Source of the DNA: a virus
Taxonomy: Duplodnaviria; Heunggongvirae; Uroviricota; Caudoviricetes
Virus record (IMG/VR): IMGVR_UViG_3300042946_001496
Length of the DNA stretch: 33,763 nucleotides
Strand: one strand, 5' to 3'
Position numbers and translations under genes: made by a program. Positions 1 through 26,749 of the stretch are shown one piece after another (positions within the stretch are counted from its first letter, which is position 1; every line of letters starts with the position of its first letter). The notes below the pieces were generated by a model. That model was not told the origin of the DNA. It searched no databases and saw only the letters and a program-made list of their open reading frames with translations.

Positions 1-282
1 AATCGACTAAAGCCTTAACCGGCGTTGATAGTTACGCAATGGCTGCCTGATAAAAAGGGCTCCACGAATTGAGGATGCTACGCAGGATGCGTCCAAAAAT
101 TCGTCGTTAAATCCTGCTGGTTTTCTGGTGTTCAACTTATCAGAAAATAAGAAAATAGGTTGAGAGACTTTAAAAACTTTTGTTTGTTGATGTTTTTAAA
201 GTCTTATTGAACAACAAACTAAACATGTAGATGTTATAAATTGAATTATTTCAGGACGCGGGTTCGACTCCCGCCGCCTCCA
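1..282 (+). ncRNA. ssrA: tmRNA, 3' portion (5' end lies outside the window)
   Basis: Tag frame GVDSYAMAA** at 21-53. tRNA-Ala-like 3' end GGACGCGGGTTCGACTCCCGCCGCCTCCA ends at 282; CCA is not encoded. Confidence 0.93.
21..53 (+). other. tmRNA proteolysis tag frame (A)GVDSYAMAA
   Basis: ggc gtt gat agt tac gca atg gct gcc tga taa; typical YAxAA ending with tandem stops. Resume codon inferred from the preceding TTAACC. Confidence 0.8.
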
Positions 283-289
283 ATTTAAC

Positions 290-320
290 TACCCACTATC
301 TGACTATTAGATAGTGGGTA
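290..320 (+). terminator. Hairpin / putative intrinsic terminator after tmRNA
   Basis: 12-bp perfect stem tacccactatct/agatagtgggta followed by T-rich tgttattt. Confidence 0.65.
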
Positions 321-387
321 TGTTATTTATGGTCCGTCACTTAAGAGCATCATTGGTTCTATTTAGGATCAACAATCTAAAAGGGGA

Positions 388-735
388 ATGGAAATGAGCA
401 TTCGCAAAGAACTTGGGAAAATCGAAAGTGTTAGTTTTGGATTTGGTGGATATCAAGAAGCTATGATGGGACTTTCACTTGGATTTTCTGGTGAAGGCTG
501 GGGAGTGAGTGATTTTATTAGTGGCTCTTGGCAATCAAGTATAAAGTGCGACGATCATTGTAAATGGAAAGAAAATGATCGTAGTATTGCTAGAGTTGCT
601 ATGGTTGAACGTATTGACAAAATCCTCACCGATGCTAAAGTCTACTCTGTAGATAAACTCAAGGGCAAGCCTGTTGAATTAACATTTGACGGCAATATGC
701 TTAAAGAGTGGAGAATTCTAACAGAGGTTCTTTAA
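388..735 (+). CDS. Hypothetical protein
   Basis: 115-aa ORF, AAGGGG RBS-like sequence upstream. Confidence 0.75.
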   Translation: MEMSIRKELGKIESVSFGFGGYQEAMMGLSLGFSGEGWGVSDFISGSWQSSIKCDDHCKWKENDRSIARVAMVERIDKILTDAKVYSVDKLKGKPVELTFDGNMLKEWRILTEVL

Positions 736-749
736 AATAGAGAGATTAT

Positions 750-992
750 GTGACGAGAAACTATAAAGATGCCGCAGTTGGTAAGCGAATTCGCTTATTA
801 GATGAAATGAATAATCCAAATTCTTCTTGGATGCCAAAAGAAGATTTGCCTGTTGGTTTAGAAGGCACGATTACCTATGTTTCAATTCATGGGAGTCATT
901 TAGATCAAATAGGAGTTAATTGGGATAACGGAAGGGTTTTAGGCATATTACCTTACAAAGATAATTATGAAGTTTATGAAGCTAACTCTTAA
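750..992 (+). CDS. DUF4314-like protein
   Basis: GKRIRLL...LPVGLEGTI...IGVNWDNGRVLGILP..D.YEV resembles the DUF4314 pattern. Confidence 0.6.
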   Translation: MTRNYKDAAVGKRIRLLDEMNNPNSSWMPKEDLPVGLEGTITYVSIHGSHLDQIGVNWDNGRVLGILPYKDNYEVYEANS

Positions 993-1031
993 TTATTAAT
1001 TTAAAATTGTTATGAGTTTCATAAATAATGC

Positions 1032-3037: not shown

Positions 3038-3211
3038 ATGTCTAAACCAAATCACTATAGTTTCGACATCTACAGAGTTTATGTTGAAAATGAAAAAGAA
3101 TTAGTAAGTTTAGAAATTGACAATGTAATATCTTGGGATAGTTTTAAGCTTAAGATGACAAAAGAAGAATTTGAAAAATTTGTACTTTTTGTTCAAGGGT
3201 ATCTCAAATGA
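3038..3211 (+). CDS. Hypothetical protein (57 aa, below ORF-track cutoff)
   Basis: MSKPNHYSFD...VQGYLK*; fills the gap and is ATGA-coupled to 3208. Confidence 0.65.
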   Translation: MSKPNHYSFDIYRVYVENEKELVSLEIDNVISWDSFKLKMTKEEFEKFVLFVQGYLK

Positions 3212-3396
3212 TAATTGACTTTTTTCTTACAGCAAATATCAAACGTGATAGTGTGGTAGATTTGCTTAAAAAAGCTTTAGAGCAAGAAACCGGAAAGAAA
3301 GTGGAACATATCAAGTTTGATACAGCCCAGATGTCAGGTAACTTTGATGGAATTACTGTAACTTTTGCTAAAGAAAAACTTGAGCCCATAGATTAA
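3208..3396 (+). CDS. Hypothetical protein
   Basis: 62-aa coupled ORF. Confidence 0.65.
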   Translation: MIIDFFLTANIKRDSVVDLLKKALEQETGKKVEHIKFDTAQMSGNFDGITVTFAKEKLEPID

Positions 3397-4151: not shown

Positions 4152-4198
4152 CTATTTTATAGATAAAACTTTTGATTGTTAATTTCATAAATAAATCC

Positions 4199-4699
4199 AT
4201 GAACAATAAAAAATTAGTATACGCACTAAGACACAACCCACAAAAATTTGGATTAAATCCTGATGAAGAGGGATGGGTTGATCTTCAAACATTTCTTAAT
4301 GTGATGAAAATCACAAAAGATCAATTAAACAACATTATCCAAAACATGGATAAAAAAAGATTAGAGATTAAAGACGATAAAATTAGGGCTGCTTACGGAC
4401 ATTCTTACTCAAGCAGGGTTAAAAGAGAAGAAACCAAACCTCCTGATGTTCTGTATCACGGAACACCTTCTTTTACAGCTTTTTTAATTAAAAAAGAAGG
4501 GCTTAAACCTATGTCTAGACAATACGTTCACCTTTCCACTAGTCCAAAAACAGCTATAATAGTTGGTCAAAGAAGACAAGAAAATCCAACCATTCTTCGA
4601 ATAGATGCAAAAAAAGCATTTGAAGATGGCGTTAAATTCTACTATAGCAATGAGGATATCTGGCTGGCAGATTACATTCCTTCAAAATACATATCTTAA
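4199..4699 (+). CDS. kptA: RNA 2'-phosphotransferase, KptA/Tpt1 family
   Basis: LRHNP..FGL..D.EGWV, KKR.E, IRAAYGHS, LYHGT, GLKPMSRQYVHLS and W.ADYIP motifs. ATG 4199 preferred over TTG 4172. Confidence 0.93.
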   Translation: MNNKKLVYALRHNPQKFGLNPDEEGWVDLQTFLNVMKITKDQLNNIIQNMDKKRLEIKDDKIRAAYGHSYSSRVKREETKPPDVLYHGTPSFTAFLIKKEGLKPMSRQYVHLSTSPKTAIIVGQRRQENPTILRIDAKKAFEDGVKFYYSNEDIWLADYIPSKYIS

Positions 4700-12046: not shown

Positions 12047-12281
12047 TTTTAGCAATAAAATTAAACATAGAGTATGTGATGCATACATCAAGCATATGTT
12101 TTGGGCTGAACCTACAGAATCCTTATCAATAAAAGGACTTGGTTGTTTTTTTAATGAAATTGTTTTCTTTGATAAAGAAGAAAAAATTATTGAAACGGCG
12201 AATACGATGTTCATTATATCGTCTTTTAAATACGACGAACAATCTTTTTGGAATACTTTAGAAGAGAAAATCAAACAATGA
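12030..12281 (+). CDS. LxSF-leader protein, family B
   Basis: MSKLSSFSNK...FDKEEKIIET...FWNTL. Confidence 0.8.
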   Translation: MSKLSSFSNKIKHRVCDAYIKHMFWAEPTESLSIKGLGCFFNEIVFFDKEEKIIETANTMFIISSFKYDEQSFWNTLEEKIKQ

Positions 12282-12484
12282 AAAACAATCTCGATAGCTT
12301 TAATAAAGATAAAATTAAATGCAAAAAATGCAAAAGTTATTATGATCCTGGAGATTGGGTTACACCATCATTATGCACATTTTGTAACGAAAAATGGCTT
12401 CAATATTGGTATGACAAGCGAATGATAAAAAAGTCAGTTATAGAATCAGATAAACTTTGGGAAGCTTTCTTAAATGAACAATAA
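12278..12484 (+). CDS. Array unit 1, family A zinc finger
   Basis: MKNNLDSFNKDKIKCKKCKSYYD...LCTFC..KW...WEAFLNEQ. Confidence 0.88.
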   Translation: MKNNLDSFNKDKIKCKKCKSYYDPGDWVTPSLCTFCNEKWLQYWYDKRMIKKSVIESDKLWEAFLNEQ

Positions 12485-12725
12485 ACTCGACAGTTTTAAC
12501 AAAGATAAAAGAAAATGTCAAAAGTGTAAAAATTACTACGATGTATTGATAGGCAATTTATGCGTGGGACGCGGCAGCGAAGAATGCAGTAAAAAATGGC
12601 TCCAATATTTTTACAAAAAAGCAAAACTTTGCACCATAGCGTACCAACTCAAAGCCTCCCAGGCGATCGAGAAGCTCCACCATCATAGGAGATCCACATT
12701 TAAAGAATTTTTAAATGAACAATAA
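12474..12725 (+). CDS. Array unit 2
   Basis: MNNKLDSFNKDKRKCQKC...LCVGRGSEEC..KW...FKEFLNEQ. Confidence 0.88.
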   Translation: MNNKLDSFNKDKRKCQKCKNYYDVLIGNLCVGRGSEECSKKWLQYFYKKAKLCTIAYQLKASQAIEKLHHHRRSTFKEFLNEQ

Positions 12726-12891
12726 ACTTGATACTTTCAACAAAGATAAAAGAAAATGTCAAAAATGTAAAGAGTATTTTGATGCTCCTCGGTGGAGCTG
12801 TTTATGTGAAGATTGCTATATAAAATGGGCGATCGCTGCCCACAAACATCTGTGCAGCATTGAAGATTGGTGTAACAGTGAACAAACTTGA
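12715..12891 (+). CDS. Array unit 3 (58 aa, not in track)
   Basis: MNNKLDTFNKDKRKCQKCKEYFD...LCEDC..KW...IEDWCNSEQT. Confidence 0.85.
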   Translation: MNNKLDTFNKDKRKCQKCKEYFDAPRWSCLCEDCYIKWAIAAHKHLCSIEDWCNSEQT

Positions 12892-13102
12892 CTCTTTCAA
12901 CAAAGATAAAAGAAAATGCAAAAAGTGTCCAGAGTATTATGATATAAATCTCTGGGGTATAGCGTCGAGTTGGGCCTTATGTGAAGATTGTGATAAAAAA
13001 TGGATGCTTTATTATCGGACCCTACCAGCGTACCACCAAAACGCTGATAATTTTAATTACAACCAAATGTTTGAAGATTGGTGTAAGAATGAACAAACTT
13101 GA
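12878..13102 (+). CDS. Array unit 4 (GTG start)
   Basis: MNKLDSFNKDKRKCKKCPEYYD...LCEDC.KKW...FEDWCKNEQT. Confidence 0.85.
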   Translation: MNKLDSFNKDKRKCKKCPEYYDINLWGIASSWALCEDCDKKWMLYYRTLPAYHQNADNFNYNQMFEDWCKNEQT

Positions 13103-13349
13103 CTCTTTCAACAAAGATAAAAGAAAATGCAAAAAGTGTAAAAATTATTGCGATAAAAAACCCCTGAATTTCCTTTTATCTGACAAATTATGTGAATATT
13201 GCACAGCAAAATGGCGTATCTTTAAAGATTCTTGGTATTCTAGGTATTTTACGTTGGGGACCTCGTTAGATATTCGCAAAGCTTTTGAAGACTGGTGCGA
13301 CAGTGAATCGGATTGTTTTAAAGAGTATTTAAATGAAAAACAAACTTGA
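13089..13349 (+). CDS. Array unit 5
   Basis: MNKLDSFNKDKRKCKKC...LCEYC..KW...FEDWCDSESDCFKEYLNEKQT (doubled tail). Confidence 0.88.
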   Translation: MNKLDSFNKDKRKCKKCKNYCDKKPLNFLLSDKLCEYCTAKWRIFKDSWYSRYFTLGTSLDIRKAFEDWCDSESDCFKEYLNEKQT

Positions 13350-13515
13350 TGCTTTTAATAAAGATAAAAGAAAGTGTGAAAAATGCAAAGAGTATTATGA
13401 TAAAACTGAAAACAAACTATGTGTAGATTGTAACGAAAAATGGATTCAATTTTGCGGGAGAATAGTGGGACGGGGGACACTTTTGAAAGTTTGGAGTGAG
13501 TTTTTAAATGAATAA
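13333..13515 (+). CDS. Array unit 6
   Basis: MKNKLDAFNKDKRKCEKC...LCVDC.EKW...WSEFLNE. Confidence 0.88.
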   Translation: MKNKLDAFNKDKRKCEKCKEYYDKTENKLCVDCNEKWIQFCGRIVGRGTLLKVWSEFLNE

Positions 13516-13705
13516 CAAACTCGATGCTTTTAATAAAGATAAAGCTAAGTGTTTAAAATGTAAAGATTACTTTGAGCTGAGAGATAGCCGGTTAAAATAT
13601 ATGTGTAGAAATTGTCATGAAAAATGGGCAAAATACATCAAAAGCTTTAAACACTTGAAAGATATGAACAGTTTTGAAAATTGGTGTAACAATGAACAAA
13701 CTTGA
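13508..13705 (+). CDS. Array unit 7
   Basis: MNNKLDAFNKDKAKCLKC...MCRNC.EKW...FENWCNNEQT. Confidence 0.88.
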   Translation: MNNKLDAFNKDKAKCLKCKDYFELRDSRLKYMCRNCHEKWAKYIKSFKHLKDMNSFENWCNNEQT

Positions 13706-13898
13706 TGCTTTTAACAACGATAAAACTAAATGCAAAAAGTGTAAAAATTATTATGATAAAATAAAAGCGTTCGGAGCTAAAAAAGTTTTGTGTGACAGTT
13801 GTTATGAAAAATGGTTCATAGCGTGCCAACAACGTTTGAAGCTCACCGGTCGCCACATGACGCAAAGAGATTTTGAAAATTGGTGTAACGAGAAATGA
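13692..13898 (+). CDS. Array unit 8
   Basis: MNKLDAFNNDKTKCKKC...LCDSC.EKW...FENWCNEK. Confidence 0.88.
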   Translation: MNKLDAFNNDKTKCKKCKNYYDKIKAFGAKKVLCDSCYEKWFIACQQRLKLTGRHMTQRDFENWCNEK

Positions 13899-14080
13899 AC
13901 GAACTTGATACTTTTAATAAAGATAAAATTAAATGCACTAAATGTAAAAATTATTATGATGAAACTGAAAATAAACTATGTTTAGATTGTAACAAAAAAT
14001 GGATGAAATATTACAATAACCACAGGGAAAGTACGGATTCACGGCGATGTTGGGAGGAATGGCTCAACAATGAACAATAA
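13895..14080 (+). CDS. Array unit 9
   Basis: MNELDTFNKDKIKCTKC...LCLDC.KKW...WEEWLNNEQ. Confidence 0.88.
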   Translation: MNELDTFNKDKIKCTKCKNYYDETENKLCLDCNKKWMKYYNNHRESTDSRRCWEEWLNNEQ

Positions 14081-14276
14081 ACTTGACAGTTTCAACAAAG
14101 ATAAATTTAAATGTGAGAAGTGTAAAGAGTATTTTGATGACTTCTTTTTCAGGTGCACGTTTAGTCATTGGTTGTGTAACGATTGCTATAAAAAATGGTC
14201 TGCTTGGTGTGATAACAAAAAAATAAAAAAGTTTAGCGAAGCTTTTGTAAGTTGGTATAATGATGAACAAACTTGA
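14070..14276 (+). CDS. Array unit 10
   Basis: MNNKLDSFNKDKFKCEKC...LCNDC.KKW...FVSWYNDEQT. Confidence 0.88.
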   Translation: MNNKLDSFNKDKFKCEKCKEYFDDFFFRCTFSHWLCNDCYKKWSAWCDNKKIKKFSEAFVSWYNDEQT

Positions 14277-14475
14277 TGCTTTTAACAACGATAAAACTAA
14301 ATGCAAAAAGTGTAAAGAGTATTTTGATTACAATTATTTATATTTGTGTGAAAACTGTTTTAAAAAGTGGAAAGTTTATTATGAACCACTGAAGACTAAA
14401 TTGATTGGTGATTTTTATCACGATTATTATGAATCGGCTTGTTTTAAAGAATTTTTAAATGAAAAACAAACTTGA
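14263..14475 (+). CDS. Array unit 11
   Basis: MNKLDAFNNDKTKCKKC...LCENC.KKW...FKEFLNEKQT. Confidence 0.88.
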   Translation: MNKLDAFNNDKTKCKKCKEYFDYNYLYLCENCFKKWKVYYEPLKTKLIGDFYHDYYESACFKEFLNEKQT

Positions 14476-14668
14476 TAGCTTCAACAAAAATAAAATTAAA
14501 TGTAAAAAATGTAAAGAGTATTTTGATAAAACAAACTTCGTTATTACGTTTGGTGACTGGTTGTGTAAAGATTGTAGTGAAAAATGGTTTCAATTTCGGA
14601 GTAAACAACCTATTTCCAAGCTTGTTTGTACTAAAATTTGGATTGATTTCTTAGATGAACAAAACTAA
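14459..14668 (+). CDS. Array unit 12
   Basis: MKNKLDSFNKNKIKCKKC...LCKDC.EKW...WIDFLDEQN. Confidence 0.88.
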   Translation: MKNKLDSFNKNKIKCKKCKEYFDKTNFVITFGDWLCKDCSEKWFQFRSKQPISKLVCTKIWIDFLDEQN

Positions 14669-14695: not shown

Positions 14696-14716
14696 GGATT
14701 CGTGGAGGGAGCGACT

Positions 14717-15382
14717 ATGATTAACATTGTTAGAAGCACTATTAGCAAGGACGAACACTATTATTTTGGCGTCAGTATGGGCGTCGATAGTGTTAGTGCT
14801 TACTTTTGGATGCTGAATAAAGGCTACAATGTTAGTCCTATTCACTTTAACCACAAGTTGCGACCGCAGAATGACTTGATGGAAAGTAAGTATTTGGAAC
14901 TTTGTGATGCTACTCACAAGATTCCTATGGTTGGTAAAGGGAAAAATCTTAGCACTGAAAGCGATTGCCGCAAGGCTAGGCTTGAGTTTGTTAAGAGTGT
15001 TGTGAACTTTGGCGGCAGTATTTTGACTGCACATCATCTTAATGATTTTGTTGAAAGCTATCTACTGAACTGTTTTCGTGGCAAGCCAGACAACAACATC
15101 ATTAGCCTTGTAAGCAATTTTCCTGAATACAAAATTGTTCATCCTTTTCTTTTGAGTAGGAAAAAGGATTTGATTCAATATGCCGAACGTAACGATTTGA
15201 TGCGTTTTGTAGTTACTGACGAAACCAATGGAATCATCAAAGGCAGCCGACGAAACTGGATCAGGAATGTAATTGTTCCTGAAATGAAAAAGCAAAAGCT
15301 GAGTCTGGAAAAGTTTTGTATCGAAAAAATTAAAGAAATGGAGAAAAATTACTCTATTGAAAATGAAACAGCACTAGGGTAG
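14717..15382 (+). CDS. tilS: tRNA(Ile)-lysidine synthetase, catalytic N-terminal domain only
   Basis: PP-loop variant SMGVDS, HFNHKLR, R..R, TAHHLND..ES.LL...RG, HPFL, D.TN, RNWIR..IVP; adjacent to a CAU tRNA. Confidence 0.85.
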   Translation: MINIVRSTISKDEHYYFGVSMGVDSVSAYFWMLNKGYNVSPIHFNHKLRPQNDLMESKYLELCDATHKIPMVGKGKNLSTESDCRKARLEFVKSVVNFGGSILTAHHLNDFVESYLLNCFRGKPDNNIISLVSNFPEYKIVHPFLLSRKKDLIQYAERNDLMRFVVTDETNGIIKGSRRNWIRNVIVPEMKKQKLSLEKFCIEKIKEMEKNYSIENETALG

Positions 15383-15429
15383 AATGGGTGTGTCGAGAGA
15401 ATAATTAGGAGATAGATAAAACAAAACAT

Positions 15430-15706
15430 GCGGCGTTAGCTCAACGGTGAGAGCAAGGAACTCCAAAAGGGTCGACTATCTGGAAACGGATAGTTAGTTA
15501 GGTGTAAATTCGGTGAACGCTTTAAAATGCCAACGCCGAGCCAAGCCTAGAAGTAATTCTAGGAAGGTGTAGAGACTATAATCACCCACCTAAAGCTGGA
15601 AACAGTAACGGTGAAGGCATAGTCCAGACCACAAATCGAAAGAGTAGCGAAAGCTATAGTGGTAAGCATAATTCCGAGGTTGGGGGTTCGAATCCCTCAC
15701 GCCGTA
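15430..15706 (+). tRNA. tRNA with anticodon CAU (probably Ile2/lysidine, possibly elongator Met), intron-split
   Basis: Exons 15430-15462 and 15667-15706 join to a cloverleaf: GCGGCGT/ACGCCGT, GCTC/GAGC, loop CT CAT AA, T-loop TTCGAAT, A73. No fMet hallmarks. Confidence 0.88.
15463..15666 (+). mobile_element. Group I intron (204 nt) inserted after U33
   Basis: P1 with U.G at the splice site; aaattcggtgaa and gccgagccaa core strands; P7 gacta/tagtc; terminal G. Confidence 0.92.
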
Positions 15707-15726
15707 TTTTGTTTGATTGTTGATTT

Positions 15727-15996
15727 GGCCCAGTAGCTCAACAGATAGAGCAACAGCCTTTAAAAATGGAGTGCTTAAAGGGAAACCTTTAAAGTATAAT
15801 CGCTTAAATTCGGTGAAGGCTTAACTGCTAATACCGAGCCAAACCTAGAAATAGGAAGGTGTAGAGACTTAACAGGCGACACCTAAGACTGAAAAGTTAT
15901 GGTGAAGATAAAGTCCAGACCACAAATCGAAAGAGTAGCGAAAGCTATAGTGGTAAGCTAAGCTGTAGGTTCCAGGTGCAAATCCTGGCTGGGTCA
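15727..15996 (+). tRNA. trnR: tRNA-Arg(UCU), intron-split
   Basis: Exons 15727-15760 and 15958-15996: GGCCCAG/CTGGGTC, ACAGC/GCTGT, loop CT TCT AA, CCAGG/CCTGG. Atypical D-loop (single G) and TGC T-loop. Confidence 0.85.
15761..15957 (+). mobile_element. Group I intron (197 nt) inserted after U34
   Basis: Same core as the first intron; P7 gactt/aagtc (compensatory change); last 46 nt identical to intron 1; terminal G. Confidence 0.92.
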
Positions 15997-16554
15997 CTTT
16001 TTTTCATGTATTTCTCGGTGGCAATTAGCACAAAGCAACATACATTTATCCAATTCTTTCTTAACAACCTCATTAAATTTATATCTTTTAAGTTTTGAGG
16101 GTGTAAAATCTTTTTCTTTTGGATCTATGTGATGAAATTCTAGTGCTCCCATACACCTATCATATCCACCTAAGACTGTGCAATTAGGATTTTGACACTT
16201 TCCACCTTTATATTCAACCATCTGTATCTTTAATTTTCTAAGTCTTCCCAGGGTTTGTTTGCCTGTACATTCCTTACAGTAAACAGAAGATCCTTTAACT
16301 CCCCGCCTTTGATAAAAATTTGATCTATTGTGTGTTTCGCCACAATTAGGGCAATATTTTTTTGTTTTTGTGTTTGTTTCACCATTACCAGCAATTTTAT
16401 TAAAAATTTCTTCTGAAAAATTTTTAAAATTAGGCGTAAGTTTATGTTTTTTAACCCAATATCTCACTGTGGTCAAAGACTTGTTCTCCAGTTTTGTTAT
16501 TTGGTGAAGTGATAAACCAGAGTCTAAATGTTTTTTTAATGTTTCGTATTTCAT
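15994..16554 (-). CDS. Free-standing HNH endonuclease with N-terminal HTH-like and zinc-finger regions
   Basis: YKGGKC..C..GYDRCMGALEFHH.DP..KDF...ELDKCMLLCANCHREIH; ATG 16554 preferred to the track start 16788, which overlaps NADAR. Confidence 0.9.
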   Translation of the reverse strand: MKYETLKKHLDSGLSLHQITKLENKSLTTVRYWVKKHKLTPNFKNFSEEIFNKIAGNGETNTKTKKYCPNCGETHNRSNFYQRRGVKGSSVYCKECTGKQTLGRLRKLKIQMVEYKGGKCQNPNCTVLGGYDRCMGALEFHHIDPKEKDFTPSKLKRYKFNEVVKKELDKCMLLCANCHREIHEKK

Positions 16555-16608
16555 ATAATTATATAGTATAATGGATAAAATTTTTTCACCATCCATTAAG
16601 CTAAAAAA

Positions 16609-17073
16609 ATGAGCAAATACAAATTTTTCTACAATGGTATCTTTTCTCAATGGCATAAAAGCTCTTTTGAGATTGATAATATTCAGTATAATTGTGCTGA
16701 ACAATACATGATGCACCAAAAGGCATTGCTTTTTGGTGATTTTGAAATTGCTGAAAAGATTATGGAGGCAGAACATCCTCGTGATCAAAAAGCTTTAGGG
16801 CGACAGGTAAAGAATTTTGATGTTAATGTTTGGAACGAAAAAGCAAGAGATATTGTCTATAAAGGCAATTATGCTAAATTCAAGAAAGATCCTCTGCTTC
16901 TTAGTGCTTTGCTAGAAACTTCTGGCACATTAGTTGAAGCAAGCCCATATGATTGTGTTTGGGGAATCGGCTTGTCTATGAATGACGAGCGTATTCATGA
17001 TCCTAAAAATTGGCTTGGAACTAATTGGTTGGGTGAGGTTTTGACAAAACTTCGTGATGATTTTAAATCATAA
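16609..17073 (+). CDS. NADAR family protein (YbiA-like)
   Basis: FSQWH, CAEQYMM.QKA.LFGD, KALGRQV.NF, LVEASPYD.VWGIG, N.LG..L..LR. Confidence 0.93.
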   Translation: MSKYKFFYNGIFSQWHKSSFEIDNIQYNCAEQYMMHQKALLFGDFEIAEKIMEAEHPRDQKALGRQVKNFDVNVWNEKARDIVYKGNYAKFKKDPLLLSALLETSGTLVEASPYDCVWGIGLSMNDERIHDPKNWLGTNWLGEVLTKLRDDFKS

Positions 17074-19274: not shown

Positions 19275-19547
19275 ATGGTCTTTGAATTTGAAATGAACGA
19301 ACAGCAGTTGCGTTTAGCCTTAGATGCTATTGAGAAAGCTAAAGAAAAAGGTTTTTCTCATGCAAATGCTGTTTTGCGTATTACCGGTATGAAAGAAGAT
19401 GGAACAGACGTTTCTGCTTCTTTTTTAGGTCATATTATCTTGAAAGCTCACCCGGAAGATCCTAACCAAAATTGGGGTCGCAGTACCGTTGAAATGCTCA
19501 AATACGAAAGATGCTTAGATGGTAAGTTTGTTGCAGAGTCGGATTGA
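19275..19547 (+). CDS. Hypothetical protein
   Basis: 90-aa ORF. Confidence 0.7.
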   Translation: MVFEFEMNEQQLRLALDAIEKAKEKGFSHANAVLRITGMKEDGTDVSASFLGHIILKAHPEDPNQNWGRSTVEMLKYERCLDGKFVAESD

Positions 19548-19556
19548 ACAAAACCA

Positions 19557-19736
19557 ATGAAAACTCTAATAACGATAGAAGTTGAAAACGAAATCGGAAA
19601 TCCCTCCGTTAAAGAAATAGAATCTTTTGTCAAACAAGTCATAGAAAAAGGACTTGTTGGGAATTTTGACATACACAAGCATTGTCCAATAAGTGGTATA
19701 TCTCTAAGAATTTTAAACGTAGAAAGAAAAGAATGA
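19557..19736 (+). CDS. Hypothetical protein (59 aa, not in track)
   Basis: MKTLITIEVE...ERKE*; ATGA-coupled to 19733. Confidence 0.6.
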   Translation: MKTLITIEVENEIGNPSVKEIESFVKQVIEKGLVGNFDIHKHCPISGISLRILNVERKE

Positions 19737-25784: not shown

Positions 25785-26192
25785 ATGAAAAATTTTGATA
25801 AATGGCTACAAGAAAATGAACTAGTACGAGGAGGAGTGCTATCAAACCCAGTATTAAATGCAAGAAAAGATGATGAAATTGTTCAACAAAAAGGAATGGT
25901 CAAATACAATAAAAGACCAGCGGACCACGATCAATGGAAGTGTAATAAGTGTGGGGAATGGAATAATTCAAATCGTGGGGATAAATGTAGTGCCTGTCGA
26001 AGAGGAAATGGTGGAGAAAGAGTAGAAACTAGAAATGGCTCTATGTTGTTAAAATCAACGATACGGTCATTAGATAACGCTATTCAAGAGTTACGTCCAC
26101 ATCACCTTCTTCTGAGCGTGGTTAATTCACTTGAAGCACAAAAACATAATTTGATCAAACAGCTCGAAGATGTAGCCAGAAAGTTTAAATGA
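25785..26192 (+). CDS. Protein with MKxFxxWLxE N-terminus and a RanBP2-like zinc finger
   Basis: MKNFDKWLQE...WKCNKCGEWNNSNRGDKCSAC. Confidence 0.75.
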   Translation: MKNFDKWLQENELVRGGVLSNPVLNARKDDEIVQQKGMVKYNKRPADHDQWKCNKCGEWNNSNRGDKCSACRRGNGGERVETRNGSMLLKSTIRSLDNAIQELRPHHLLLSVVNSLEAQKHNLIKQLEDVARKFK

Positions 26193-26749
26193 AGAAATTT
26201 TCAACATGGTTAGAAGAATTTTCCGCTCATGATTTCGCTAAAGAAAAGCATGATTCTACTGAAAAAGTAAGAAAACTTTCTGGTCTGCCATATTTTACTC
26301 ATCCAAGTAATGTGGCTGATTTGTTAAAAAGTGCTGGGGCAAGTAAAGAAGTTGTTATGGCTGGTTATCTGCATGACACCACAGAAGACGCTGGTTTTAG
26401 TTTAGAAGAAATAAAAGAAAAATTTGGAAATAGAGTTGCCGAATTGGTTTCCGGCTCAAGCGAACCAGACAAAGGTGCTAGTTGGGATGAAAGAAAACAG
26501 CACACAATTAGTTATCTAAAAAGCATCAAAGACCCAGAAATACTATATGTTGTCGTAGCGGATAAGCTAGACAATGTAACAGATACTCATGTAAATGGCG
26601 GTCCTGGAATATGGAGTAAGTTTAACGCTCCATATGAAAAACAAAAGTGGTATTACAAAACTCTATCGGATATATTTCTTGATAAAATACCAAATTTTTC
26701 ATTAACTCAAAAATACAAAACAATAGTTGAAAAAGTTTTTGATGACTGA
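26189..26749 (+). CDS. HD-domain protein, RelA/SpoT-type (p)ppGpp hydrolase-like (small alarmone hydrolase)
   Basis: H....RK.SG.PY..HP..VA, AGYLHDTTED, FG.RVA.LV, ERK, ADKLDN; N-terminus MKKFSTWLEE. Confidence 0.88.
   Translation: MKKFSTWLEEFSAHDFAKEKHDSTEKVRKLSGLPYFTHPSNVADLLKSAGASKEVVMAGYLHDTTEDAGFSLEEIKEKFGNRVAELVSGSSEPDKGASWDERKQHTISYLKSIKDPEILYVVVADKLDNVTDTHVNGGPGIWSKFNAPYEKQKWYYKTLSDIFLDKIPNFSLTQKYKTIVEKVFDD

Follow-up and report, generated by a model that had tools for sequence, protein, structure and literature searches.

The classic bacterial hosts of introns among transfer RNA (tRNA) genes are tRNA-Leu(UAA), tRNA-fMet(CAU), tRNA-Ile(CAU) and tRNA-Arg(CCU). A group I intron in the cyanobacterial and bacterial tRNA-fMet(CAU) was reportedly described by Biniszkiewicz, Cesnaviciene and Shub in 1994, and in 2009 Zeng, Bonocora and Shub are said to have described collaborative homing, which pairs a cyanophage psbA intron that has no open reading frame (ORF) with the free-standing endonuclease F-CphI. 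Here we analyse a stretch of 33,763 nucleotides (nt), hereafter the window, from a virus of the Caudoviricetes (IMG/VR record IMGVR_UViG_3300042946_001496), in which two adjacent tRNA genes, a tRNA(CAU) and a tRNA-Arg(UCU), each carry an ORF-less group I intron within the anticodon loop. We consider it probable, and hold with good confidence, that these genes belong to a decoding module whose two introns come from separate sub-lineages, share a 3' tail through conversion, and are served in trans by a neighbouring HNH endonuclease.

The IC3 intron in the tRNA-Ile(CAU) of Azoarcus sp. BH72 is ~200 nt long and lacks an ORF (PMC13168695; PMC3984707), and the window intron in tRNA(CAU), intron 1, resembles it in compact size, absence of an ORF, IC3 type and CAU host. 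Among phages, a 2014 review placed all introns then known in protein genes, and Devoto et al. (2019; PMC6784885) reported "enigmatic" introns in the tRNAs of Lak megaphages, phage tRNA introns being said to be previously unreported. Those inserts, like ours, lie in the anticodon region of tRNAs of very large phages. The window introns, however, are complete group I ribozymes, whereas the Lak inserts are short, tRNA-like in some cases and were not assigned to group I.

Intron 1 also has in common with the bacterial tRNA-fMet(CAU) intron its site between U33 and C34, an IC3-like core and a P9 tail motif. This is the classic bacterial site, here seemingly in a non-initiator tRNA (anticodon stem AGGAA/TTCCG), which differs further from the fMet class in residing in a phage and in lying beside a TilS-like gene. 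The Synechocystis intron encodes I-Ssp6803I, and intron 1 has no ORF. The intron in tRNA-Arg(UCU), intron 2, uses the same U34 register and the same guide core, GAG, as the tRNA-Leu(UAA) intron, and its body is 80-86% identical to tRNA-Leu(UAA) introns of phages, but its host is a non-classic one and its genome that of a phage. The arrangement of an ORF-less group I intron with a free-standing endonuclease gene beside the interrupted gene is that of collaborative homing, although the putative target in the window is a tRNA gene, not a protein gene.

Two tRNA genes split by group I introns

All parts of both genes lie on the plus strand. The tRNA(CAU) gene consists of a 5' exon at 15430-15462 that ends in U33, intron 1 at 15463-15666 (204 nt) and a 3' exon at 15667-15706 that begins with C34. 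The tRNA-Arg(UCU) gene consists of a 5' exon at 15727-15760 that ends in U34, intron 2 at 15761-15957 (197 nt) and a 3' exon at 15958-15996. The exons were called by ARAGORN after splicing, and the introns were defined from the Rfam model RF00028, covariation, P1 pairing and minimum free energy (MFE) folding. Intron 1 is preceded by GGAACT and followed by CATAATTCC, giving a spliced loop CT-CAT-AA with the junction at 33/34; intron 2 is preceded by CAGCCTT and followed by CTAAGCTG, giving CT-TCT-AA with the junction at 34/35. When all registers were enumerated, a single one per gene combined a 7-nt loop, a U at -1 and a G as the final intron base, and these two registers, together with the coordinates and lengths of the introns, are those that an earlier note on this DNA had put forward. 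Joined in silico, the tRNA(CAU) exons form a canonical cloverleaf of 73 nt that ARAGORN calls tRNA-Met(cat), and the tRNA-Arg exons form a canonical class I cloverleaf called tRNA-Arg(tct).

The same note had warned that standard scanners may miss both genes, and they do. Default ARAGORN reports 0 tRNAs instead of 2 in the whole window, and the Rfam tRNA model likewise reports none. With its intron option, ARAGORN places Trp(cca) i(38,204) and Arg(tcg) i(36,177); we rejected both, as they lack the U at -1 and the terminal G.

Both introns have an IC3-like group I core in which the P7 pocket, J6/7 and J8/7 are all intact. Intron 2 scores 59.6 bits against RF00028 (E = 7e-13), above the gathering score of 50. 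Each intron has its own P1 guide, and each guide places a U.G pair at the splice site, as the note had claimed. The strand paired with GGGU (15469-15472) in intron 1 is exon ACU followed by intron base c1, and that paired with UGGAG (15767-15771) in intron 2 is exon CUU followed by intron bases ua; U(-1) faces G in both. P7 is formed by 15574-15578 and 15620-15624 (GACTA/TAGTC) in intron 1 and by 15866-15870 and 15911-15915 (GACTT/AAGTC) in intron 2, and the omega-G is the terminal G at 15666 and 15957, respectively. MFE folds recover P2, P4-P6, P8 and P9 in both introns, with z-scores of -3.9 for intron 1 and -4.2 for intron 2.

We examined this structure in an alignment of 46 distinct members of the intron family described below, using a hand-drawn P2-P9 model that includes the P3/P7 pseudoknot. 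Paired cells made up 89.9% of the total, compared with 75.0% in shuffles, double-sided changes were found in 29 of the 43 pairs, and sliding the partner strand by 1-3 columns lowered pairing to 27-45%. Helices P4 to P9a were 94-100% paired; P3, which is poorly aligned, was 52% paired. The P7 change between the two introns, which the earlier note had described as compensatory, is present as stated, and it is a family-wide dimorphism: 23 sequences have A-U as the last P7 pair and 22 have U-A.

Given this conservation, each precursor would be expected to self-splice by the standard group I route. Guanosine would attack after the U of the P1 U.G pair, the exons would be ligated after the terminal G of the intron, and a normal 7-nt anticodon loop would be restored. 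The GGGU guide of intron 1 would pair with A31-C32-U33 and so set the site at U33/C34, and the GAG guide core of intron 2 would pair with C32-U33-U34 and set it at U34/C35.

Separate intron bodies and an identical tail

To place the two introns among their relatives, we used a scan of IMG/VR with a pattern built from three conserved core segments, which matched at least 118 viral contigs. The core lay inside a tRNA gene in 79 of the matches listed; with the loci L001 and L003 and the window, these make up a family set of at least 81 intron-split tRNA genes that contains 67 distinct intron sequences and many duplicates.

An optimal pairwise alignment of the two window introns, with the last 46 nt left off, gives an identity of 74%. 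The body of the Arg intron is closer to introns from elsewhere: it is 86% identical to those of L083, also in a tRNA-Arg(UCU), and L054, and 82-86% identical to a dozen phage tRNA-Leu introns. L083 is a 251-kb viral contig with the same intron-split tRNA-Arg(UCU); its tRNA plus intron is 84% identical to the window, and the intron body 85-87%. The L083 locus has otherwise one feature in common with the window, a conserved small ORF that matches window 19559-19735. This second common region (window 19547-19718) was also considered as an RNA, a candidate rejected in favour of a small protein ORF. The nearest relative of the CAU intron is the intron at 33/34 in the tRNA-Leu of L001, at 78%. In an IQ-TREE phylogeny of the intron bodies, the Arg intron falls in a six-member clade (support 99/96) and the CAU intron lies outside it. 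The best explanation would therefore appear to be that the window introns come from different sub-lineages, each belonging to its own insertion-site lineage with the matching guide. An old relationship between them is possible. A recent transposition between the neighbouring tRNA genes, as first inferred in the earlier note, is not supported by these body identities and this clade.

The tails tell a different story from the bodies. The last 46 nt of the introns, which comprise the 3' strand of P7, P9, P9a and the terminal G, are exactly identical between copy 1 (15621-15666, plus strand) and copy 2 (15912-15957, plus strand, the probable conversion recipient), as previously noticed, and the identity extends into the first exon base, C. 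Among ~2,066 pairs of distinct introns with a body identity below 0.8, identical tails occur in three, which are the pairwise combinations of the window CAU, window Arg and L001 introns (hereafter the trio). The tail carries a compensatory T...A pair in the small P9 hairpin at a position that is nearly always C...G in 64 other members, the two bases occurring in 0/64 and 1/64 of these. This rare pair, and the restriction of identical tails to the trio among the divergent pairs, indicate that the tails of the trio are identical by descent and younger than the bodies to which they are attached.

The same tail variant is found in L366, a copy of the L001 Leu 33/34 intron, and in the tRNA(CAU) 33/34 intron of L365, a metagenome contig (JACCEA012295675.1) whose tRNA(CAU) 3' exon resembles Escherichia coli genes annotated as tRNA-Ile. 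Since L001/L366 and L365 carry the variant and the body of the Arg intron belongs elsewhere, the tail appears to belong to the 33/34 lineage, with the Arg intron the likely recipient. Our best reading is thus that a short ectopic gene conversion homogenised the tails, a source that the earlier note had also invoked, and that its direction was most likely from the CAU-type intron to the Arg intron. After separate origins of the two introns, a short conversion tract would have homogenised the last 46 nt. In L365 we also noted an antisense zinc-finger ORF upstream of the core, possibly inside the intron.

Insertion sites and guides in the intron family

The matches listed show a family that uses few sites and several hosts. 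At site 34/35, the host is tRNA-Leu(UAA) in at least 57 cases (nine of class I length), tRNA-Arg(UCU) in at least 11, the window counted, and tRNA-Gln(UUG), tRNA-Lys(UUU), tRNA-Ile(UAU) and tRNA-Ser(UGA) in at least one case each. At site 33/34 there are at least two tRNA-Leu(UAA), at least four tRNA-Arg(UCU) and, with the window, at least two tRNA(CAU) genes. At least one tRNA(CAU), in L052, is interrupted at 36/37. The earlier proposal to survey phage genomes for the same sites has thus borne out the occurrence of both CAU 33/34 and Arg(UCU) 34/35 introns within the at least 81 split genes.

Across the 67 distinct introns, the guide at 34/35 sites is GAG(U), which pairs with C32-U33-U34, and that at 33/34 sites is GGG(N), which pairs with N31-C32-U33; the sole 36/37 site among the matches listed has the guide GUG. 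The Azoarcus intron, which sits after U36 with the guide GUG, has L052 as its only counterpart at 36/37 among these matches. Guide-exon pairing would explain this site logic, and the presence of the 34/35 lineage in Leu(UAA), Arg(UCU), Lys(UUU), Gln(UUG), Ile(UAU) and Ser(UGA) tRNAs would follow from the CUU that these have in common.

Outside the window, Arg(UCU) introns are present in one bacterial metagenome-assembled genome (MAG) and at least 14 times in IMG/VR, where many of the loci duplicate one another. The earlier note knew of no Arg-UCU case at 34/35. Our coverage of the literature, which was incomplete, likewise yielded no description of group I introns in tRNA-Arg(UCU) or in phage tRNA genes, yet Arg(UCU) hosts recur in those loci. 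The family therefore seems to be widespread and apparently not described in print. What is new here is the setting, with phage tRNA genes and with tRNA-Arg(UCU) and a probable tRNA-Ile2 beside a TilS gene, and a clear short conversion tract between non-allelic ribozymes.

A cultured phage also appears to carry the family. In the Agrobacterium jumbo phage Atu_ph07 (MF403008, L364 561-922), ARAGORN in intron mode finds an apparent tRNA-Leu(UAA) with a ~278-nt family intron at 34/35. It is absent from the annotation as a tRNA and is overlapped by a coding sequence (CDS) annotated as a hypothetical protein. Matches in Pelagibacter phage HTVC120P and Pseudoalteromonas phage pYD6-A were set aside, as their introns lie between protein-coding CDSs and not in tRNAs.

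Two side observations concern host tRNAs. Intron-bearing UAA tRNAs of class I length (73-77 nt, without a long variable arm) were seen in L013, L017, L027, L040, L054, L069, L072, L082 and L115, and a UAA anticodon on such a tRNA is unusual for bacterial-type tRNA-Leu. In L083 at ~3080-3220 (minus strand), ~60 nt downstream of the intron-bearing tRNA-Arg, a tRNA-Asn(GUU) carries a 69-nt insert after G34, far below the size of a group I intron.

Bacterial relatives

We also scanned bacteria, one genome per species, for the core and tail followed by a 3' exon starting with CWWAR, and obtained at least 120 loci. Among the matches listed, 52 loci were classified, and in all but one of these (51/52) a tRNA(CAU) is interrupted at 33/34. 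The sources of these 51 include Saccharimonadota and other candidate phyla, Nitrospirota, Bacteroidota and Cyanobacteriota; two of them belong to Cyanobacteriota, and 19 have the initiator-type GGG/CCC stem. The remaining classified locus, in a Paludibacteraceae MAG, is a tRNA-Arg(UCU) with its intron at 34/35. Arg(UCU) as a host is thus rare in bacteria and commoner in phage contigs. The other 68 of the at least 120 loci have no host class, perhaps because their introns carry ORFs.

A neighbouring HNH gene and the prospect of mobility in trans

A free-standing HNH endonuclease gene (15994-16788, minus strand; probable start at an internal ATG near 16656) lies convergent with tRNA-Arg, its stop codon overlapping the last 3 nt of the tRNA. 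The protein matches phrog_2255, HNH endonuclease (E = 1.3e-30), with the motif EFHHIDP...LLCANCHREIH, and searches against Pfam and NCBIfam gave no match. Related HNH genes lie a few hundred bases from intron-bearing tRNAs in L119, L053, L025, L063 and L027, and in L001 an ORF with Cys-rich motifs overlaps the 3' end of tRNA-Leu in the same convergent layout. In 81 loci, the CxNCH motif was found 27 times in the 172 kb within 1.2 kb of introns (0.157/kb) and 7 times in the remaining 591 kb (0.012/kb), a 13-fold enrichment near introns. Potential targets are plentiful for one of the two genes: intron-free tRNA-Arg alleles with exactly the same anticodon arm occur in at least 120 viral contigs, and one intron-free tRNA(CAU) allele with the anticodon arm of the window was found, in L242.

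ORF-less introns, an adjoining HNH gene and abundant intron-free alleles together form the arrangement expected for collaborative homing in trans. The HNH endonuclease is a probable agent, acting in trans, of the mobility of the introns or of the tRNA locus, and it may have supplied the DNA break behind the conversion.

The intron-free tRNA(CAU) of L242, a 488-kb viral contig, lies at 1-1012 (minus strand) together with an HNH ORF between what appear to be the halves of another tRNA (GACCAGT... and ...CTGGTCA). In bacterial MAG contigs L122, L135, L158, L164, L167, L171 and L173, which are among the loci without a host class, related HNH genes are found 135-270 nt from the matched 3' parts of introns (core to 3' exon).

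A TilS-like gene and the identity of tRNA(CAU)

Directly upstream of tRNA(CAU) and on the same strand is a TilS-like PP-loop gene of 226 codons (14702-15382, plus strand; likely start ATG 14717), identified from Pfam, TIGR02432 and Protein Data Bank (PDB) matches and corresponding to the N-terminal domain of TilS only. Its product scores 81 bits against Pfam PF01171 (cut-off 27), and its top PDB matches are TilS 1WY5 (E = 2e-12) and 1NI5. No relatives were found in IMG/VR; similar short TilS genes are annotated in jumbo phages such as PA5oct.

Over the 53 ORFs of the window used for codon counts, 31% of Ile codons are ATA and 50% of Arg codons are AGA. In the TilS-like gene, none of the 17 Ile codons is ATA and one of the 11 Arg codons is AGA, an avoidance that would be expected if the gene is translated before the tRNAs that it serves exist. 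The anticodon stem of tRNA(CAU), AGGAA/TTCCG, lacks the three G-C pairs (29-31:39-41) of initiators. From this context, tRNA(CAU) is most likely a tRNA-Ile2 that carries lysidine at C34 and reads AUA. The minimal TilS-like gene, tRNA(CAU) and tRNA-Arg(UCU) would then form a three-gene decoding module for the frequent AUA and AGA codons. An exact-match search of metagenome contigs with the T-arm of tRNA(CAU) gave no match. A promoter-like TTGAAA-17-TAGAAT, a weak candidate, is present upstream of tRNA(CAU) at 15357-15385.

Weighing the alternatives

Several points weigh against our overall reading. Intron 1 scores 35.8 bits against RF00028 (E = 2e-7 locally, 1e-5 window-wide), below the gathering score of 50, so that the covariance-model check suggested in the earlier note came out in favour of intron 2 and not of intron 1; we assign intron 1 to group I despite this score because it is homologous to intron 2 and fits the family alignment. 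P10 pairing to the 3' exon is not evident in either intron, and splicing activity is predicted from conservation. An approximately unbiased (AU) test that constrained the window introns to one clade (158 columns) gave p = 0.246. Conversion is no general feature of adjacent intron pairs: in L088, another phage locus with two adjacent intron-bearing tRNAs, the tails are 76% identical and show no homogenisation. L083, the closest Arg relative, has no adjoining HNH gene. The assignment of tRNA(CAU) to tRNA-Ile2 comes from context only; the TilS-like protein scores 84.5 bits against TIGR02432 (lysidine_TilS_N), under the cut-off of 93.6, its PP-loop motif, SMGVDS, is a variant of SGGxDS, and searches of E. 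coli genomes and tRNA genes gave no match to the tRNA(CAU) 3' exon. Finally, the window has no structural genes, and its phage nature is judged from gene content and relatives.

Some of these points speak for other explanations of the two introns and their tails. One intron could have jumped recently to the neighbouring tRNA gene, with its guide retailored and the 3' ends then held identical by gene conversion. The tRNA genes are indeed adjacent (15430-15706 and 15727-15996), their introns end in the same 46 nt, a common clade is compatible with the AU test, and site switching does occur, as Arg(UCU) introns stand in at least three places in the tree. A recent jump is nonetheless unlikely. The two bodies match at only 74%, whereas the Arg intron matches at least 12 introns of other phages at 82-86%, and L083 has an intron at this site of its tRNA-Arg(UCU) that matches it at 86%; the 99/96 clade, moreover, holds the Arg intron without the CAU intron. 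Alternatively, strong purifying selection on the P9 domain and the 3' splice site could have kept the tails identical without any recombination. The tail is the best-conserved part of the family, with mean tail identities of 0.77-0.86 where bodies are at 0.6-0.9, and many of its columns are more than 95% conserved. Conservation of this kind, however, makes for a very improbable account of zero differences over 46 nt that include loop and linker positions at which the rest of the family varies freely, of a common T...A pair with bases present in 0 and 1 of 64 members elsewhere, and of the absence of identical tails from all other pairs among the ~2,066 divergent ones. Separate sub-lineages with a converted tail accommodate both the bodies and the tails.

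The other alternatives concern what the locus does. That tRNA(CAU) is an elongator tRNA-Met, with the TilS-like gene acting on another tRNA or having a different PP-loop function, is a credible though less than probable reading. It draws on the ARAGORN Met call, which is made from the anticodon alone, on the sub-cut-off TIGR02432 score and variant PP-loop motif, on an exon without detectable similarity to E. coli tRNA-Ile2, and on PA5oct, whose short TilS gene has no adjacent tRNA. Against it stand the position of the TilS-like gene, immediately upstream on the same strand, and its lack of ATA, a codon that accounts for 31% of Ile codons in the window; moreover, the window yielded no other AUA-reading candidate, and the second frequent A-ending codon is the one read by the partner tRNA-Arg(UCU). 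We give hardly any credence to the idea that the introns are decaying relics which no longer splice, leaving both tRNAs as pseudogenes. The score of intron 1 and the lack of an evident P10 would fit such decay, but the core helices, P7 pocket, J6/7, J8/7, U.G pair and terminal G are intact, the joined exons of both tRNAs give canonical cloverleaves, the covarying family structure accommodates the helices of both introns, and the codon avoidance of the TilS-like gene implies a module in use. Introns that are predicted to splice, within a module that serves AUA and AGA, thus remain our preferred interpretation.

Implications

This locus and the other split genes of the family show the supposed absence of introns from phage tRNAs to be an annotation artefact, as tRNA finders skip these genes. 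Consequently, tRNA inventories of large phages, and analyses of their codon adaptation and anti-defence "tRNA rescue", undercount tRNAs. Two tRNAs, tRNA-Arg(UCU) and a probable tRNA-Ile2 beside its modifying enzyme, join the hosts of group I introns, and the locus provides an example from nature in which non-allelic ribozymes have undergone partial gene conversion. The cultured phage Atu_ph07, with its apparent tRNA-Leu intron, makes the family testable at the bench.

More speculatively, and with little confidence, phage tRNA clusters might be a breeding ground for such introns, in which HNH breaks are repaired from non-allelic introns and modules such as the 46-nt P9 tail are exchanged. With small changes in the guide (GAG versus GGG), introns could reach any tRNA with a CUU| or NCU| loop (the bar marking the splice site), and large phages could be the main reservoir and vehicle of sporadic bacterial tRNA introns, perhaps across phyla.

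Genomic setting

The window has a GC content of 33% and consists mostly of small ORFs on one strand. Its genes include the 3' part of a transfer-messenger RNA (tmRNA), Tpt1, NADAR, RelA/SpoT-HD and PcfJ-like genes and a few ORFs with PHROG matches, and the sequences most closely related to it come from large IMG/VR contigs and from records of huge phages. We read it as part of a large uncultured phage.

Positions 1-285 hold the 3' two-thirds of the tmRNA (78.8 bits), cut by the edge of the window, with a tag that by eye ends in ...SYAMAA. This tmRNA could be either phage-encoded or an ssrA integration site. A prophage at ssrA is not favoured, given that no integrase match was found in the sample of ORFs scanned, that the ORFs are small and on the same strand, and that it is jumbo phages that supply the matches. 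At 12249-14600, immediately upstream of the TilS-like gene, a ~103-nt unit is repeated in tandem 12 times at a spacing of 160-247 nt, and the copies correspond to small paralogous Cys-rich ORFs with an LCxDC...KKW motif. Genes for a Tpt1/KptA RNA 2'-phosphotransferase (4172-4699), a NADAR protein (16609-17073) and a RelA/SpoT-type HD protein (26189-26749) together resemble the RNA-repair, ADP-ribose and alarmone toolkit typical of very large phages.

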